64,000 bases of DNA from Escherichia coli (GTDB lineage Bacteria > Pseudomonadota > Gammaproteobacteria > Enterobacterales > Enterobacteriaceae): assembly GCF_041248615.1 (NCBI RefSeq), contig NZ_CP158426.1. One strand, 5' to 3'. The position numbers were made by a program, and so were the translations under genes. Under the pieces are notes generated by a model. That model was given only the letters and a program-made list of their open reading frames with translations, did no database searches and was not told the DNA's origin. Below are positions 25,113-31,925 of this stretch, piece by piece (position 1 is the stretch's first letter; every line of letters begins with the position of its first letter).

Positions 25113-27371
25113 TCAAATCAATCCTGCCAGATGGAACTCTTCATATAACCGTTTTGGCGTCAGCGGCAGTGTATTGATTGCAACACCGGTAGCCATCTTC
25201 ACCGCGTTACGAATAGCAGCGGCAACAGGAATTATTGGTGGCTCACCCAGTGACTTATGTCCGTATGCGGATTGCGGCTCATTGATTTCGACGAACGCGC
25301 TTTCCAGTTGTGGCAGATCCGGCATGGTCGGCATTTTGTAATCCAGCAGATTGGGGTTACGGACCACGCCGCTTTTAGCATCGATGATCATCTCTTCAAA
25401 TAGCGCCCAGCCAATGCCCATTCCCATTCCGCCGTGTACCTGACCTTCTGCCAGCAGTGGATTAAGAATATGCCCTGAATCATGAACGTTGAGGATGCGG
25501 TTGATGGTGACTTTGCACAGCGCAATATCGACCGTCAGATCAACAAAGGTACAGCCAAACGCCGGTGGGTTAGTGGTGGTTTTGATGGAGCTTTCAGCAG
25601 AGAGCTGCCCGCCGCGTTCAGGGTGGTAGAAAGCGTCCATCGCCAAATCTTTTAACGACATTAACGGCTCTTCCGGTCGTTCAACCAGCACGATATGGCC
25701 TTTTATCAGGGTCAGATTCATCGCTGACTGATGTAGCATGACTGCGGCGTGAGCGATGATTTTCTCTTTTAATAATAGTGCCGCACTGCGCAGCGCAGGC
25801 GCGGCAACATAGCTCTGGCGTGAGGCAAATGCGCCGGGATCGAACGGCGTAACGTCGGTATCTTGAGTTGAAATAACGCGAACGTCGCTGACCGGAACCC
25901 CCACGGTTTCTGCCACCATTTGCGAGAAGACGGTGTCGGCACCCTGACCGATTTCCGTCGCGCCGCTTTGCACGTTGATGGTTCCATCCTGATTCATCAG
26001 AAGGCGCGCGCCTGCTATTTCTACGCCGACAGGCCAGGTGTTAGAGGTGTAGCTAAAACAGGCGATGCCAACGCCGCGGCGCAAATTGCCTTGCTGGTTC
26101 TGGCATTCTGCACGGCGTTTTTCCCATTCAAAGATTTTCCGGCCTTTTTCAAGACACTCCGGCAACCCTGCGCTGTAAATACGTTTGCCCGTGAGCGGAT
26201 TAGCATCTCCTTCGCGGGCGGCGTTGCGTAAACGAATTTCAACAGGATCAATACCTAACGCTGTCGCGGCGTCATCAAGCATAGACTCAACGGCAAATAC
26301 GACTTGTGGCGCGCCATAACCACGCATCGCACCAGCCGAGGGGAGGTTGGTATAGCAGGTCTTTGAACTGTAAGCGTAGGCACAACGAGGATAAAGGTAA
26401 GCGACTTTATTCCCCCCCGCAGAAGCGATGGAGTGCCCGTGAGATGCATAAGCGCCGGTGTTAGACAGAACATCCAGACTATAACCTTTCAATGTTCCGT
26501 CGCGGTTCACGCCCATTTGCCCGTCAATGGTAAAAGCGTGGCGGGTACGGGTTGCGAGGAAACACTCTTCACGGCTAAGGGAAACTTTCACCGGAATGCC
26601 GCCAAGCTTGCTGGTCAGGAATGCCGCCATTGGCTCTTCCAGTACATCCTGTTTATTACCAAAACCGCCACCGACAAATGGTTTGATGACTCGTACGCAT
26701 GACCAGGGAATATCCAGCGCCTGACCAACCACGCGGCGAACAATGTGCGGGATCTGGGTGCTGGAAACGATGGTAATTCGCGAGTCATCCTCCATCCACG
26801 CCAGCGATGTTACGCTTTCCATGTGACAATGTTGAATAACGGGGGTCTGATAGTGCCCCTGTACCTGGTAGTCGGCGGCATCGATTGTTTGTTGGACATT
26901 ACCCGTCGACATCGTGCTTTGTTTCAGTAAATTGCCACCGTTATGGATTGGTGCAGCGTCTTCTGCCAGCGCCGCTTCTGGCGTGGTGATAACGGGTAAT
27001 TCTTGCCACTCAATGCTGACCAATTGCGCCGCTTTTTCTGCCGTGAGTTCATCGCGGGCCACGACGATGGCAACGGCGTCACCATGATGACGAACATGGC
27101 GAGTTAGCAGTGCGCGATCGGCGGTATCGCGCTTGTTTTCGTCAAGTGTCCAGGCATGCCCAGCTGTAGCGAATGGAATATCAGGCACATCTTCCCAGGT
27201 AAAAATCGCCAGTACGCCCGGCAAACTTCTGGCTTGTTCATCATTAATACTTACGGCATAACCATGTGCGATAGGGCTACGTACATATTTCGCATAACAC
27301 ATGCCCGCCATAACATAATCGTCAGTATATCGTGCCCGCCCGGTGACCTTAGCAATGGCATCGACGCGCAT
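25113..27371 (-). CDS. xdhA: Xanthine dehydrogenase molybdenum-binding subunit
   Basis: ORF track 25113..27410; start set at MRVDAIAKVTGRARYTDDY (752 aa). Confidence 0.9.
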   Translation of the reverse strand: MRVDAIAKVTGRARYTDDYVMAGMCYAKYVRSPIAHGYAVSINDEQARSLPGVLAIFTWEDVPDIPFATAGHAWTLDENKRDTADRALLTRHVRHHGDAVAIVVARDELTAEKAAQLVSIEWQELPVITTPEAALAEDAAPIHNGGNLLKQSTMSTGNVQQTIDAADYQVQGHYQTPVIQHCHMESVTSLAWMEDDSRITIVSSTQIPHIVRRVVGQALDIPWSCVRVIKPFVGGGFGNKQDVLEEPMAAFLTSKLGGIPVKVSLSREECFLATRTRHAFTIDGQMGVNRDGTLKGYSLDVLSNTGAYASHGHSIASAGGNKVAYLYPRCAYAYSSKTCYTNLPSAGAMRGYGAPQVVFAVESMLDDAATALGIDPVEIRLRNAAREGDANPLTGKRIYSAGLPECLEKGRKIFEWEKRRAECQNQQGNLRRGVGIACFSYTSNTWPVGVEIAGARLLMNQDGTINVQSGATEIGQGADTVFSQMVAETVGVPVSDVRVISTQDTDVTPFDPGAFASRQSYVAAPALRSAALLLKEKIIAHAAVMLHQSAMNLTLIKGHIVLVERPEEPLMSLKDLAMDAFYHPERGGQLSAESSIKTTTNPPAFGCTFVDLTVDIALCKVTINRILNVHDSGHILNPLLAEGQVHGGMGMGIGWALFEEMIIDAKSGVVRNPNLLDYKMPTMPDLPQLESAFVEINEPQSAYGHKSLGEPPIIPVAAAIRNAVKMATGVAINTLPLTPKRLYEEFHLAGLI

Positions 27372-27824
27372 GCATGATTCACCCGTAGCGGTTGCTTCCC
27401 GCGCTTCCATAGAAATCCCCTCGATTTGAACATTTGGTTCTTATGGCAAAGATTTAGTCTAAGCAGGCAAGATTTACGCCAGAAACGACGATAAGCGTTA
27501 GGGGAGGTAGGAAGTGTGATGACGTTAAAAAAACACAGATATGATACGAAACAGGACTCTGAATAGGGGCAGTGATACGTATCAATATGAGTGGCGATAA
27601 AATCAATGTGATAAATTGGGATTATTACGCATCAGGATGGGAAATAGGGTAAAAAGTCAGGAAGTTCGATACCTCTACAGCGAATATTTTGCTGATGATA
27701 CTTCCCTTTGCCAAATGAAATTAACCTCTTTCTCTATTACCACGTTTTTCCAGAAGCAAGAGATTGGGTATCAAGAGGCTGGCTGCTATGATAAGGCGTC
27801 TTGTTTTTTAAGCGAGGAAAGATT

Positions 27825-28580
27825 TTGAGTGCGGGACGCCTGAATAAAAAATCTCTGGGTATCGTGATGTTGTTATCGGTTGGACTGCTTTTGGCGGGCT
27901 GTTCGGGTAGCAAATCATCCGATACAGGAACGTATTCCGGCTCCGTTTACACCGTGAAACGGGGGGATACGCTATATCGTATTTCGCGCACCACGGGAAC
28001 CAGCGTAAAAGAACTGGCGCGACTGAACGGCATTTCCCCCCCTTACACCATTGAAGTTGGTCAGAAACTAAAACTGGGTGGGGCGAAAAGTAGCAGTATT
28101 ACACGTAAATCAACCGCCAAATCAACGACCAAAACCGCATCGGTTACACCGTCATCAGCGGTACCGAAATCATCCTGGCCGCCAGTAGGGCAACGTTGTT
28201 GGTTATGGCCAACGACAGGGAAAGTTATCATGCCGTATTCGACAGCAGATGGCGGCAATAAAGGGATTGATATCTCAGCTCCACGGGGTACACCTATTTA
28301 CGCCGCGGGTGCAGGAAAGGTGGTGTATGTGGGCAACCAGCTGCGTGGCTACGGTAATCTCATCATGATTAAACACAGTGAAGATTACATTACGGCTTAC
28401 GCCCATAATGACACGATGCTGGTAAATAATGGGCAAAGCGTGAAGGCTGGGCAAAAAATCGCCACTATGGGGAGCACGGATGCGGCATCTGTTCGCCTGC
28501 ATTTCCAGATTCGTTACCGTGCAACGGCAATTGATCCGCTACGTTACTTGCCGCCTCAGGGCAGCAAGCCAAAATGCTGA
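27825..28580 (+). CDS. ygeR: LysM-domain / M23-peptidase-family lipoprotein
   Basis: Lipobox LLAGC; LysM-like YTVKRGDTLYRISR; M23-like C-terminus (HLHFQIR). Apparent TTG start at 27825 with GAGGA RBS; the track begins at an upstream in-frame TTG at 27801. Confidence 0.85.
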   Translation: MSAGRLNKKSLGIVMLLSVGLLLAGCSGSKSSDTGTYSGSVYTVKRGDTLYRISRTTGTSVKELARLNGISPPYTIEVGQKLKLGGAKSSSITRKSTAKSTTKTASVTPSSAVPKSSWPPVGQRCWLWPTTGKVIMPYSTADGGNKGIDISAPRGTPIYAAGAGKVVYVGNQLRGYGNLIMIKHSEDYITAYAHNDTMLVNNGQSVKAGQKIATMGSTDAASVRLHFQIRYRATAIDPLRYLPPQGSKPKC

Positions 28581-28613
28581 TGGCGAATTAATCAGCAGTC
28601 AGCAGCGTGGCAC

Positions 28614-28641
28614 TTGCTAAGGAGAGCGTAAGGTTTATAAT
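28614..28641 (+). promoter_or_regulatory. Sigma70 promoter for glyU
   Basis: TTGCTA-N16-TATAAT ending about 17 bp before the tRNA 5' end. Confidence 0.5.
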
Positions 28642-28658
28642 GCCTTACGCATCTCGAA

Positions 28659-28732
28659 GCGGGCGTAGTTCAATGGTAGAACGAGAGCTTCCCAAGCTCT
28701 ATACGAGGGTTCGATTCCCTTCGCCCGCTCCA
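28659..28732 (+). tRNA. glyU: tRNA-Gly (CCC anticodon)
   Basis: 74-nt GCGGGCGTAGTTCAATGGTAGAACGAGAGCTTCCCAAGCTCTATACGAGGGTTCGATTCCCTTCGCCCGCTCCA; acceptor stem GCGGGCG/CGCCCGC, anticodon loop CTTCCCAAG, T-loop GGTTCGATTCC, encoded CCA. Confidence 0.95.
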
Positions 28733-28747
28733 GAATCTCCCCTGGTG

Positions 28748-28770
28748 GAGAAGACTAAAAAAGTCTTCTC
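28748..28770 (+). terminator. Hairpin downstream of glyU
   Basis: GAGAAGACT-aaaaa-AGTCTTCTC perfect 9-bp stem, but no clear U-tract. Confidence 0.4.
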
Positions 28771-29229
28771 TGTCAGCAACTTAAACAGTTACCTATTTAA
28801 TTTGCTTAGGAGTTCTACCATTGTGATCCGCCCTTAGTAACTGTCACGTTAAGTTACACGGTGAGATGACAGTATAACCTAACGTTGGCGGCAGTTGCAC
28901 CTCTCACACCGCGATAGCACAACGTGAAGATAAAGCCCATCCTGGCATTGTAATGTCATCGACAGACTGAACACACGCATTTAAGCCCGATGTGCGGCCT
29001 TGTGGCTGCGTAAACAGGTTTATGGTGATATTGGTCCTTGCAAACCATATGCAAGCTCTATCAGCGTTTCAGCCACGCTCCCAACGGGTACACGGTTATC
29101 CTGATAAGGTGTGATCTTTCTGACAATCTGATGAAGTCGCTACGCTCCCGCTTGTTGCTGTATCACCAACGGGGCTTTATGGTTTCTATTGTCTATAATA
29201 ATCTCACAATTCCCCTGCATGAGGTTGAT

Positions 29230-29436
29230 ATGACTGTTAGCTACAAGATTACTTATGAGCATAGAGACGGTGATCAAATTAGAATGGAAGAGGTTTTATT
29301 CCATTCAGAGCATGAACCAACAAAAGATGAAATTCATGATGCAGTAAGAAAAGATACTGTGAGATTTAATTCTCCATCTAATGGAGTAACGGCTGTTTCA
29401 GGGTTTAAAGTGATTTCGGTTGTCCCTGTTCCATGA
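29230..29436 (+). CDS. Small hypothetical protein (68 aa) in the accessory island
   Basis: Inside track ORF 29038..29436; internal ATG at 29230 has GAGG upstream and a TATAAT -10 about 35 bp upstream; product MTVSYKITYEHRDGDQIRMEEVLFHSEHEPTKDEIHDAVRKDTVRF... is acidic and soluble; low GC. Confidence 0.45.
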   Translation: MTVSYKITYEHRDGDQIRMEEVLFHSEHEPTKDEIHDAVRKDTVRFNSPSNGVTAVSGFKVISVVPVP

Positions 29437-29445
29437 ATGGTTATA

Positions 29446-29468
29446 GAAGGGGCTGGAAGCCCCTAATT
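29446..29468. terminator. Hairpin between the convergent small genes
   Basis: GGGGCT-gga-AGCCCC stem followed by AATTATT, between the 29436 and 29470 stop codons. Confidence 0.45.
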
Positions 29469-29469
29469 A

Positions 29470-29790
29470 TTACTTCTTAATATCGCCAGTGCATTGATAT
29501 TCGATAGTCACAAGTGTTTGCATACAACCAGATGAAGAAGGTTGTGAACATTGAGAAGTGAATCCACCAAAAGGCTCGGCTCCTGAATATCCCCAAGCGG
29601 CACAACGCGCTTTGGCTGCATTCATGCCTTGTTGTGGATCTACAACAGGACTTTCAAACATACCGTAAGAATAACTCATCCTAACTGTGCCGTCTGATTT
29701 GCTTCCACCAGTTGGAACGAGTTGTTTTTTTGTTGCACATCCAGAAATAATCAATGTTGAAGCAAGTAACAGCATTAAACTTTTGCGCAT
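29470..29790 (-). CDS. Putative Cys-rich lipoprotein (106 aa), unknown function
   Basis: Signal peptide MRKSLMLLLASTLIISGC with lipobox ISGC; four further Cys in the mature part; low GC. Confidence 0.6.
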   Translation of the reverse strand: MRKSLMLLLASTLIISGCATKKQLVPTGGSKSDGTVRMSYSYGMFESPVVDPQQGMNAAKARCAAWGYSGAEPFGGFTSQCSQPSSSGCMQTLVTIEYQCTGDIKK

Positions 29791-29934
29791 GTAAATAATC
29801 CCAAGAGATAATGGTTATGTATTGATTTAAAGCGTTTTTAGATTAATGCATTAACTTAGCAAAATTAAGTCTTTTCTGATTGTTTGCAGAGTAAAAATGA
29901 GTTGCTTTCGAAATTATTTCGGATGTTTATTGTA

Positions 29935-30102
29935 TTACGGTTTTTCAAACCGTCTAACTATTGTCGCTATTGAATGGGCAATAATAGCAAGAGGATTCAT
30001 TTCGTCATTGGAGGCAACAAAAAGTCGGTAACTGATAGCTACAACGAATGAAGCAATAACGAGAAAGCGGATAGTGCTAAGATGTTTTGAAGATAAATGC
30101 AT
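29935..30102 (-). CDS. Possible small membrane peptide (55 aa), speculative
   Basis: Manual translation MHLSSKHLSTIRFLVIASFVVAISYRLFVASNDEMNPLAIIAHSIATIVRRFEKP; one predicted TM helix; AGGGGG 4 nt upstream of ATG; the RBS lies in a CCCCCT/AGGGGG hairpin. Below the 60-aa track cutoff. Confidence 0.25.
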   Translation of the reverse strand: MHLSSKHLSTIRFLVIASFVVAISYRLFVASNDEMNPLAIIAHSIATIVRRFEKP

Positions 30103-30442
30103 AACGCCCCCTAAATGAATGTGAGGGGGATTAAATCATGCAAATTTGTTGTGTGCAATACTGGTAATTTATCCTAATAGTCTACTATTCACCTCAATCT
30201 ACGTCAACCAATATTTGATGTAGATTTGATTTTCTTTTAAAAACAATATTTTGCAATTTGTTGGGTTTTGGGGTTAGGTTGTTTTTTGGACGTTTCCATC
30301 AAGTGTAAAGATACGTTTAGCCTTCATAGTGAGTTCAGTTACTGTCTTTTTCTCTGAAATCGGCGCATACGTGATCATCGCTTAACGAGAAGAGCAGCGC
30401 CGTCAGGTCCATGCAGCGACAATTCTGAAATATCAGGAGGCA

Positions 30443-30994
30443 TTACGCTTCCTGCTCTTTCTTGATACGTTGCACCGTTTGTGTGCTGACACTGAAATCT
30501 TTTGCTACGCTCCGAATTGATCCACCATTCGCGAGAGCGGCAGCAATTCCCGCTCGATCAATTGCTTTTCCATTACCACGTTTTGCTATACGTCCAGCGG
30601 CCTTAGCTGCGGCGATCCCCTCACGCTGGCGCTCAAGCATCATTTCACGTTCCATTTGTGCCACTGCTGCAAGCACTGTGAGCATCATATTCCCTGCGGG
30701 AGAGTTCTTCCCTGTCTTAAAGTCTTCTTTATGGAAATGCACAGACACGCCGCGCTTTGTTAATTGCTCAACCGTTGCCAGTAGGTCGGCTGTATTACGG
30801 CAAAGTCGATCAATACTGTGAACATGCAAAACATCACCTTCCCGCACATAGTTCATCATTGCCTCAAACTGTGGGCGCTGGGTATTCTTGCCTGACGCTT
30901 TATCTTCAAAGACTTTATCAAGAGCTACTCCAGCTAATTGACGGTCTGTGTTTTGTTGCACAGTCGATACCCTAATGTATCCAATATTAGCCAT
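30443..30994 (-). CDS. Serine recombinase (resolvase/invertase family, 183 aa)
   Basis: N-terminal MANIGYIRVSTVQQNTDRQ with catalytic Ser in the YIRVST context, conserved DRLCRN, C-terminal HTH (SIRSVAKDFSVSTQTVQRIKK); AAGGA RBS. Confidence 0.85.
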   Translation of the reverse strand: MANIGYIRVSTVQQNTDRQLAGVALDKVFEDKASGKNTQRPQFEAMMNYVREGDVLHVHSIDRLCRNTADLLATVEQLTKRGVSVHFHKEDFKTGKNSPAGNMMLTVLAAVAQMEREMMLERQREGIAAAKAAGRIAKRGNGKAIDRAGIAAALANGGSIRSVAKDFSVSTQTVQRIKKEQEA

Positions 30995-31022
30995 TTTCTT
31001 TATTCCTTCTGTGTTGATTTGT

Positions 31023-31126
31023 GTGTAGTGATTATTGATCGTGTTGATTAGGTGTGTAAAGGACTTTTTTCACTACGAAATTCGAAGGTTTTTAGTGTGG
31101 TGATTTAGCCTGCTTTATCACTACAC
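31023..31126. promoter_or_regulatory. Candidate res/crossover-like site: four copies of a GTGTAGTGAT / ATCACTACAC motif in alternating orientation upstream of the recombinase gene
   Basis: GTGTAGTGAT at 31023-31032, CACTAC at 31071-31076, GTGTGGTGAT at 31095-31104, ATCACTACAC at 31117-31126; the last two form a 32-bp palindromic site with a 12-bp spacer. Confidence 0.4.
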
Positions 31127-31925
31127 GTCTTGCATGAGAATCATGTAGTTACATTTTGGTAAAATTAGCAAGCTATTAAATAGTGTGTTTATTTTGAAAA
31201 AATAATTTTTTGTTGCATTAAAGGAAACTTGTTCAATAAATGATAGAACGTTTATTGAGCAACAATTTTGCAGTGATGCGCTATATGCCGCATTACATAA
31301 GGCTTTGCTGATGATAATGTAAAAGTGAAGAAAGCTAACATTGCTCTTTTAAGCTACTTTTCATTGAATTTTTAGTATGGAATTACATAGGGATAAACTA
31401 TGAATATTCTATGATTTACACGAGATATTCTTGCTGTTTAATTCCGGCTTTGGAGATCAGGCATTCGCAAGAATACGCTAACGCGTTGCCTGAAAAGCCA
31501 TTGCACATAATAGAGGTGAGCGTATAGCGAACTATCAATGTGATCATTGCACGAATGATAATGAGTGGATATAGATTCTATATATCGTTAGATTGTAGTT
31601 TGATAGTTAATGTGTAATGTAGATTGTATGAGCGTATAGCGAATGTTAGTTAGATCAACAACAAACTAACCTTTAAATCTCTTTTATCTTCTCATAGATA
31701 TGGCTATGCGTAGCAACCGAAGGTTAGCCAATCATCTCTATGCAGCCGTAAGGCTGTTTTGCATGTAATAGTTGTTTGTTGTTGTTAGACAGTTACCAAT
31801 TTATAGATCAGAGATAGATGTGAGCGTTGAGCGATACACTAATCATAACAACATCTTCTTACTTTTTAGTTAGTTGTTAGTAGGTTATTGTTATGCGCGC
31901 TATTAGCGCATGTATAAAGGTATCA

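Follow-up and report, generated by a model that had tools for sequence, protein, structure and literature searches.

What does a small serine recombinase act on when its gene is preceded by a cluster of repeats and accompanied by no Tn3-type transposase? A 64,000-nucleotide stretch of Escherichia coli DNA (assembly GCF_041248615.1, contig NZ_CP158426.1; hereafter the window) raises this question at positions 30443 to 31126, where such a gene lies directly downstream of a repeat cluster. A first-pass annotation, made from the letters of the window, had left the choice between a relic resolvase and an active invertase acting on nearby DNA. Our analysis of the window and of related loci suggests that the locus is probably an intact resolvase gene of the Tn3-like small serine type, still functional and accompanied by its res site at 31011-31126, which would resolve multimers of an integrative element.

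The recombinase gene is conserved and has an intact catalytic center

30443-30994, minus strand: coding sequence of a serine recombinase (resolvase type, 183 amino acids), identified from the open reading frame (ORF) listing, Pfam, and alignment to gamma-delta resolvase

The encoded protein begins with MANIGYIRVST and has the catalytic domain, C-terminal helix-turn-helix (HTH), and length (approximately 180 to 210 amino acids) that define small serine recombinases. Pfam places a Resolvase domain (PF00239) at residues 4-135 (E value of 1e-38) and HTH_23 at the C terminus (residues 144-180; E value of 7e-5). The latter aligns with the C-terminal domain of the gamma-delta and Tn3 resolvases and contains the predicted recognition helix, STQTVQRIKKE. 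The ORF and the Pfam matches agree with the first-pass annotation, which had read the gene as a 183-residue small serine recombinase with a YIRVST start and a C-terminal HTH. Over its full length the protein is 36% identical to gamma-delta resolvase, and its Y6, R8, S10, D62, R63, and R66 align with the catalytic residues Y6, R8, S10, D67, R68, and R71 of that enzyme. All six positions are invariant across nine homologues.

Comparison of the window allele with an allele diverged by 3% gave a ratio of nonsynonymous to synonymous substitution rates (dN/dS) of 0.06 at a dS of 0.12, and the low ratio includes the catalytic domain. There were no substitutions between these two alleles in the interval containing res (31003-31152). 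On this comparison, the recombinase gene is under strong purifying selection. The suggestion that the locus is a relic fails for the gene and its res, and it holds for the surrounding element, which is truncated by an IS1 copy. The window allele encodes lysine at codon 80 (window position 30757), where all four compared alleles encode glutamate; this change is private to the window and noncatalytic. A PADLOC search returned no match for the recombinase or for the neighboring cargo.

Protein sequence alone cannot separate a resolvase from an invertase, whereas the layout of the DNA sites can. Placement in a subfamily by hidden Markov models gave no assignment, as all NCBIfam matches were far under their cutoffs. 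Among PDB entries, the Tn3 and gamma-delta resolvases (approximately 99 bits) score only slightly above Gin invertase (90.7 bits), too near to discriminate between subfamilies, and Sin scores 68.9 bits. Residues 4-112 are 55.5% identical to the product of a gene annotated as a Tn1721 resolvase in the phage-plasmid SJ46. A DNA invertase of the Hin/Gin/Pin kind, flipping a nearby segment flanked by two crossover sites, would have an equally fitting size and domain layout, and the NCBIfam model for the Mpi invertase gives a weak match (52.7 bits against a cutoff of 272).

Six half-sites upstream of the gene form three putative subsites

31095-31126, no strand: res site I, presumed crossover site; a 32-bp inverted repeat (GTGTgGTGAT-N12-ATCACTACAC) centered at 31110/31111, the subsite furthest from the gene
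31041-31078, no strand: res site II, presumed accessory subsite; inverted half-sites at 31069-31078 (tTCACTACga) and 31041-31048 (GTGTTGAT), spanning 37 to 38 bp
31011-31032, no strand: res site III, presumed accessory subsite; head-to-tail half-sites at 31023-31032 (GTGTAGTGAT) and 31011-31018 (GTGTTGAT), 14 bp apart from start to start, adjoining the start codon

The DNA directly upstream of the recombinase gene contains six half-sites over 116 bp (31011-31126), with the general form TGTA-NN-GAT. The motif is exact at 31023-31032 (GTGTAGTGAT) and, in inverted orientation, at 31117-31126 (ATCACTACAC), and it matches at 9 of 10 positions at 31095-31104 (GTGTgGTGAT). The first-pass annotation counted four copies. 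Their clustering and these three copies stand, but the fourth, tTCACTACga at 31069-31078, was a slightly generous call (7 of 10 positions, with the core TCACTAC), and two shortened copies, GTGTTGAT at 31011-31018 and at 31041-31048, were missed. Both shortened copies occupy half-site positions that are conserved in homologues. The 32-bp palindrome with a 12-bp spacer is present as described, at 31095-31126. The centers of sites I and II are 51.5 bp apart, or approximately five helical turns.

At no more than one mismatch, the 10-mer occurs three times within 125 bp. None of 1,000 shuffles of the window reached three copies; the maximum was two, in 25 of the 1,000.

The half-site core co-varies with the predicted recognition helix

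We gathered homologous loci (designated by L numbers) from genomes, plasmids, and assemblies and read the 150 to 220 bp upstream of each gene. The upstream region can be aligned along its full length among eight homologues, whose proteins share 63 to 81% identity with that of the window, and it has the same six-half-site layout in all of them. In the orientation of the gene, this layout consists of a forward and a reverse half-site separated by 12 bp (site I, 30 bp from TGT to ACA), a gap, a forward and a reverse half-site separated by approximately 20 bp (site II), and two reverse half-sites (site III), the last of which ends 13 to 24 bp ahead of the ATG. The 30-bp geometry of site I, TGTA..GAT-N12-ATC..TACA, is invariant in all five loci measured and aligned in all eight, and the last two half-sites are 14 bp apart from start to start in each of the five. 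Site II is 37 to 39 bp long across loci. Four loci have distances of 51.5, 52, 53, and 53.5 bp between the centers of sites I and II, and the fifth has 60.5 bp.

Within the half-site, the outer TGTA and the inner GAT are kept. The core between them varies from one locus to another and is common to all half-sites within a locus. Its variants pair with predicted recognition helices as follows.

Helix STQTVQRIKKE (window, L009, and L030, which are 68 to 70% identical overall): half-site TGTAGTGAT
Helix STNTISRIKKE (L026, from Klebsiella): half-site TGTAGCGAT
Helix SLNTVYRVQQE (L005): half-site TGTATCGAT
Helix ST[KR]TV[MQ][TN]IK[SA]E (L008, L023, and L004): half-site TGT(A/T)GTAAT

Because the half-site core tracks the predicted recognition helix, it is very probably the recombinase itself that binds the repeats; short of experiments, this co-variation is the strongest evidence that the protein binds there. 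Together with the layout kept in homologues, it bears out the earlier description of a res-like cluster of several subsites. The window half-site TGTAGTGATAA resembles the gamma-delta half-site, TGTCTGATAA, plus one extra base.

We also considered whether the repeats could be iterons or operators for another protein of the element, such as an initiator or a repressor, that lie beside the recombinase gene by chance. In favor of this explanation, iterons lie close by and the element contains many other families of repeats. However, the cluster accompanies the recombinase gene on unrelated backbones, including Klebsiella and Rahnella islands and small plasmids of Salmonella and E. coli, and it is absent from L041, a related locus without the recombinase. 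With the core also following the recombinase's own helix, we regard binding by another protein as extremely improbable.

A single cluster per locus points to a resolvase rather than an invertase

An invertase acts on two inverted crossover sites that flank a segment. The first-pass annotation had likened the repeats to hix or gix crossover sites and proposed looking for a second, inverted copy of the 32-bp site. We found no such copy in either orientation across the 64-kb window, even with four mismatches allowed. In 11 related loci, which include intact elements and complete plasmids, there is one cluster per locus, always directly upstream of the gene. None of these loci, whether the intact O26 element, the element of strain HUSEC2011, or the plasmid and heterologous loci, contains a second site. 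Comparison of related genomes shows collinearity, without a flipped segment or orientation polymorphism. Since the cluster is single everywhere examined and has no inverted partner in 64 kb, we read the locus as a resolvase with res and not as an invertase.

Invertase genes typically have a crossover site just ahead of their start, and this locus would share the feature. However, the several accessory half-sites differ from a lone 26-bp hix or gix site, and relatives of the gene occur on 2-kb plasmids with nothing to invert. An active invertase is therefore a very unlikely explanation, and the comparison with hix and gix did not survive.

The recombinase and res form a cassette in an integrative element at glyU

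28659-28732, plus strand: tRNA-Gly(CCC) gene glyU, with the island's left attachment repeat in its 3' 22 bp (28711-28732)
30384-31220, no strand: exchangeable recombinase and res cassette of 837 bp; homology to L041 stops at 30383 and resumes at 31221
33506-34273, minus strand: IS1 copy truncating the island (source annotation and IS1 end sequence); homology to the O26 element ends at 33505

The recombinase gene and res lie in an island beside glyU, between actS/xdhA and the ETT2 remnant. An intact version of this element is found in O26:H11, where it measures 13.5 kb (L002 12112-25625) and is flanked by copies of the 22-bp tRNA 3' end; the far copy (L002 25604-25625) lies beside a tyrosine integrase gene. 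From the left, the O26 element contains small cargo genes, the recombinase gene, res, a 2.3-kb gene-free stretch, and small ORFs, followed by genes for a 221-residue HTH protein, a capsid-like protein, a tape-measure-like protein, and the tyrosine integrase. The 221-residue protein gives weak matches to lambda-O-like initiators (E values of 7e-6 to 4e-4), and in Pfam it matches only HTH_36. In the window, IS1 has removed the initiator, the structural genes, the integrase, and attR, which is everything rightward of the first small ORF. The first-pass view of an orphan without a partner is thus correct in that no Tn3-type transposase is present: there is no such ORF in 26000-36000, and the annotations of the source genome and its relatives list none either. 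It does not hold more broadly, as the gene belongs to a glyU element that elsewhere has a putative iteron origin, an O-like initiator, and a tyrosine integrase. IS1 abuts a truncated yqeI, and the source strain lacks both the remainder of the island and the ETT2 secretion-system region as far as yqeI.

DNA related to the backbone of the element is present in 743 of 5,426 complete E. coli genomes (approximately 14%), and a related recombinase with res in 427. Members of the element family occur at glyU, at thrW in the O104:H4 outbreak strain HUSEC2011 (L034), at a thiM riboswitch in ATCC 8739 (L033), and on an IncF plasmid. Those represented by L002, L034, and L033 are 9 to 13.5 kb long and encode a tyrosine integrase, an O-like initiator, a capsid-like protein of 342 residues, and a tape-measure-like protein of 613 residues; we found no terminase or portal gene in these three. 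By its gene content, the family looks like a phage satellite or mini-prophage. We did not find it described in the literature, which was searched mostly on other questions.

Recombinases of the same family are also found on complete plasmids of 1,952 to 5,789 bp as well as on integrase-bearing islands, and on small plasmids multimer resolution is their obvious role. Three of the plasmids (L004, which is the 1,985-bp pDETEC86, together with H35 and H36) are complete circles of approximately 2 kb whose sole annotated gene is a 68%-identical family recombinase. They have GAGTAACC-type repeats upstream of this gene, and a search of these plasmids for an Rfam match of the RNAI/RNAII type found none.

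The boundaries of the cassette can be seen where its content differs. The slot in O157:H16 strain 98-3133 (L041 8081-9563) holds a gene for an unrelated secreted protein, by coincidence also of 183 amino acids. In ATCC 8739, which has a 63%-identical recombinase of a different type with its own motif, homology to the window resumes at 31222. We considered whether such exchange arises at res itself, with intermolecular recombination between plasmid and chromosomal copies fusing elements and shuffling their cargo and replication halves. The same recombinase and res do occur on the IncF plasmid and at several chromosomal sites, the cargo downstream of the gene is highly variable, and the mosaic locus L006 switches from window-like to plasmid-like sequence within 31003-31152, exactly the res interval. 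Yet the patchwork of L006 extends into the gene, as is typical of ordinary homologous recombination, and the shared cassette boundary at 31221 is 110 bp from the center of site I. Module exchange at site I is unconvincing for these two reasons. In addition, resolvases that depend on accessory sites normally disfavor intermolecular reactions (PMC12217951). Swapping between elements through res therefore seems quite unlikely.

Multimer resolution and autoregulation are the proposed functions

31031-31060, minus strand: predicted sigma-70 promoter of the recombinase gene, with a -35 hexamer TTTACA (31060-31055), an 18-nucleotide spacer, and a -10 hexamer AATAAT (31036-31031); 10 of 12 consensus positions match

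Sites II and III overlap the predicted promoter, with one half-site within the spacer and the next abutting the -10 hexamer. Promoters were called by consensus matching only, and the same overlap with half-sites appears in homologues at TTTACT-17-TATAAT (L030), TTGATC-17-TATAAT (L005), and TTGACA-17-CATAAT (L009). The positions of these two half-sites suggest autorepression, in which the recombinase would repress its own promoter by binding sites II and III.

On the resolvase reading, dimers of the protein would bind all three subsites of res. If the excised element dimerized, one supercoiled molecule would contain two directly repeated copies of res, which could synapse through their accessory sites. 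Ser10 would then cleave at the center of site I (31110/31111), and strand exchange would turn the dimer into monomers, while occupancy of sites II and III would repress the recombinase promoter. By the precedent of Salmonella genomic island 1 (SGI1), the likely job of the cassette would be to resolve multimers of the excised, replicating element. With the initiator, integrase, and right end removed by IS1, the window system is intact but stranded, and with its single res and no partner site it probably only autoregulates.

The overlap with the promoter also suits a different view of the repeats, in which they are purely an operator array and the protein, having lost its use in recombination, either just binds DNA to regulate its own gene or persists as a selfish leftover. 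The element is truncated in the window and has only one res there, the cassette is optional within the element family, and the window allele has the private E80K change, all of which are compatible with lost recombination. However, the recombinase retains every catalytic residue, and the dN/dS of 0.06 applies to the whole protein. Site I, the promoter-distal subsite, has no role in repression, yet no feature is more strictly conserved, its length being 30 bp in every homologue measured. Moreover, the same allele is present in complete elements and on a plasmid. We consider a pure operator array unlikely.

Several observations weigh against the resolvase reading. When up to two mismatches are allowed, the motif cluster is not significant on its own, so the comparative data carry the argument, and of the six window half-sites, two are shortened (GTGTTGAT) and one matches at only 7 of 10 positions. 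Because site II is longer than in Tn3 (37 to 39 versus 34 bp) and site III is head-to-tail, the architecture of the synapse may differ from that of Tn3. The element family can do without the cassette, as seen from the slot in L041, which another gene fills, and from the 427 genomes with a related recombinase versus the 743 with the backbone. No second res exists in this genome, and hence the window recombinase has no substrate for recombination. Finally, we infer binding, cleavage, and repression from sequence, and likewise autonomous replication of the element from its iterons and weak initiator matches.

The res layout combines features of known resolution systems

In Tn3-family res sites, the centers of sites I and II are 4 to 7 helical turns apart, with approximately 5 being typical (PMC12217951). 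The window system resembles Tn3 and gamma-delta in the length of its protein (183 amino acids), its 36% identity and catalytic residues, and its three putative dimer-sized subsites directly upstream of the gene, with a distal site I, a distance of about five turns between sites I and II, and a predicted promoter beneath the accessory sites. It differs in having no Tn3-family transposase (the DDE enzyme TnpA) and no terminal inverted repeats, which are approximately 38 bp long in transposons of that family. Compared with the 114-bp res of Tn3/gamma-delta, site I is 30/32 bp rather than 28 bp and site II is 37 to 39 bp rather than 34 bp. In addition, each Tn3-like subsite, including site III, is inverted, whereas the promoter-proximal pair is head-to-tail in all five loci measured here. 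The gamma-delta residues R2, K54, and E56, which form the 2-3' interface, align with A, Y, and R in the window recombinase.

The nearest annotated match to the window catalytic domain is TnpR of the Tn21/Tn1721 subgroup (the 55.5% match over residues 4-112 noted above), for which three subsites upstream of tnpR are described by Rogowsky et al. 1985, as cited in PMC12217951. The window gene differs from this subgroup in being unlinked to tnpA and in its C-terminal domain and DNA motif.

SGI1 provides the closest functional precedent, as it has the same setting of an integrated island with its own tyrosine integrase and a Tn3-like resolvase. Its Res/res system was shown experimentally to eliminate multimers of the island, and its res has a distal boxI, a boxIII adjoining the start codon, and a promoter over the accessory boxes (PMC12217951). 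The central dinucleotide of SGI1 res is AC, as in several homologues of the window system. However, the SGI1 protein belongs to another lineage and recognizes another motif, and boxIII is weakly inverted, in contrast to the head-to-tail pair of the window system. SGI1 is mobilized by IncC plasmids, whereas the window-type element, which encodes an O-like initiator and a capsid-like protein, looks more like a phage or a satellite.

A head-to-tail accessory subsite is a point of likeness with Sin and beta, which act as plasmid multimer resolvases; site II of Sin consists of head-to-tail half-sites (PMC2428073). Sin res has two subsites and an HU/IHF site, whereas the window res has three recombinase subsites, and the protein match to Sin (68.9 bits) is weaker. 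With Hin, Gin, Cin, and Pin, the window recombinase shares its protein superfamily, its size, and a site adjoining the 5' end of its gene. It differs in the missing inverted partner and invertible segment and in its cluster of several subsites in place of a single 26-bp crossover site. Where integrative elements carry resolvase-like small serine recombinases, a study of pipolins likewise infers a role in resolving multimers (PMC11551731).

What we describe is a resolvase and res of an already known Tn3-like type on a plasmid-like integrative element, with a somewhat unusual subsite layout. On this reading, the recombinase serves a mobile island as a module for resolution and autoregulation and is not a phase-variation switch, which accounts for the "recombinase family protein," otherwise without a name, that several hundred E. 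coli genomes encode, the O26:H11 and O104:H4 outbreak lineages among them. The res layout combines Tn3-like and Sin-like features, and the helix and the half-site core co-vary cleanly; for both reasons, the family is a convenient natural series in which resolvase specificity and orthogonal resolvase/res pairs could be studied or engineered.

A putative origin lies in a gene-free region next to res

32207-32330, no strand: putative replication origin of the element, consisting of 2.3 copies of a 23-bp iteron (32207-32259) followed by a stretch of 84.5% A+T (32260-32330)

Each 23-bp iteron has internal dyad symmetry, and the iterons are approximately 1.1 kb from res. HUSEC2011 has four of them (L034 12430-12531). 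Together, the iterons and the AT-rich stretch look like a lambda-type origin for the O-like initiator of the element, whose gene is deleted in the window.

The putative origin is part of a 2.2-kb gene-free region (31130-33330) with a GC content of 35%, compared with 49.5% for the window. Related DNA is never annotated in the 743 of 5,426 complete E. coli genomes that carry it. The region holds several repeat families and nested long-range complementarities. Between 32330 and 32960, the predicted RNA fold of the minus strand has a z score of -6.1, compared with -2.5 for the plus strand, on only 20 shuffles. In an alignment of eight sequences, a 22-bp long-range helix shows three one-sided changes that are compatible with G-U pairing only on the minus strand, and one hairpin shows allele-specific compensatory changes. 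A structured RNA may account for these features, or else a series of palindromic sites for proteins. The latter would produce a similar picture of folding and changes, and the homologues are too alike to decide between the two.

Rfam searches of 28000-35000 and of five related loci returned only tRNA, the thiamine pyrophosphate (TPP) riboswitch, naRNA4, and int-alpA, none of them in the gene-free region. The region had no match in phage DNA. Its only two matches in a plasmid collection were to the IncF copy and to a 4.9-Mb E. coli record, NZ_CP134663.1. When viral contigs were scanned with 16-mers for divergent versions, only E. coli-like copies and chance matches emerged, and their diversity was too low for a test of covariation.

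These features invite a broader interpretation, to which we give tentative and limited credence: the loci at glyU, thrW, and the thiM riboswitch would represent a common family of small integrative replicons of E. coli (9 to 13.5 kb) that has apparently gone undescribed, with at least four mutually orthogonal specificities of resolvase helix and half-site. Its members would have an iteron origin of the lambda type, a gene for a capsid-like protein, and a gene-free control region of 1.2 to 2.3 kb that may encode a structured RNA. If this is true, the family would provide naturally orthogonal resolvase-res pairs, and their recognition code would be simple and readable at the two variable core positions. 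Our observations also draw attention to the element family, which is widespread but unannotated, and to its gene-free control region.

The DNA on the other side of the cassette is variable

Cargo lies between the attachment site and the recombinase gene. In the window (29179-30102), it consists of a gene for a YecR-like lipoprotein and small ORFs, with no PADLOC match. Elsewhere the cargo includes GmrSD (ATCC 8739, L033), Kiwa KwaA/KwaB (Klebsiella, L026), and DUF6119 with HNH (another E. coli island, L023), and the slot behaves like a defense or moron hotspot. Downstream of the recombinase gene, a conserved block of approximately 100 bp (30280-30385, minus strand) contains a possible 34-codon ORF (MITYAPISEKKTVTELTMKAKRIFTLDGNVQKTT). 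This block is kept, at 84% identity, even in elements without the recombinase.

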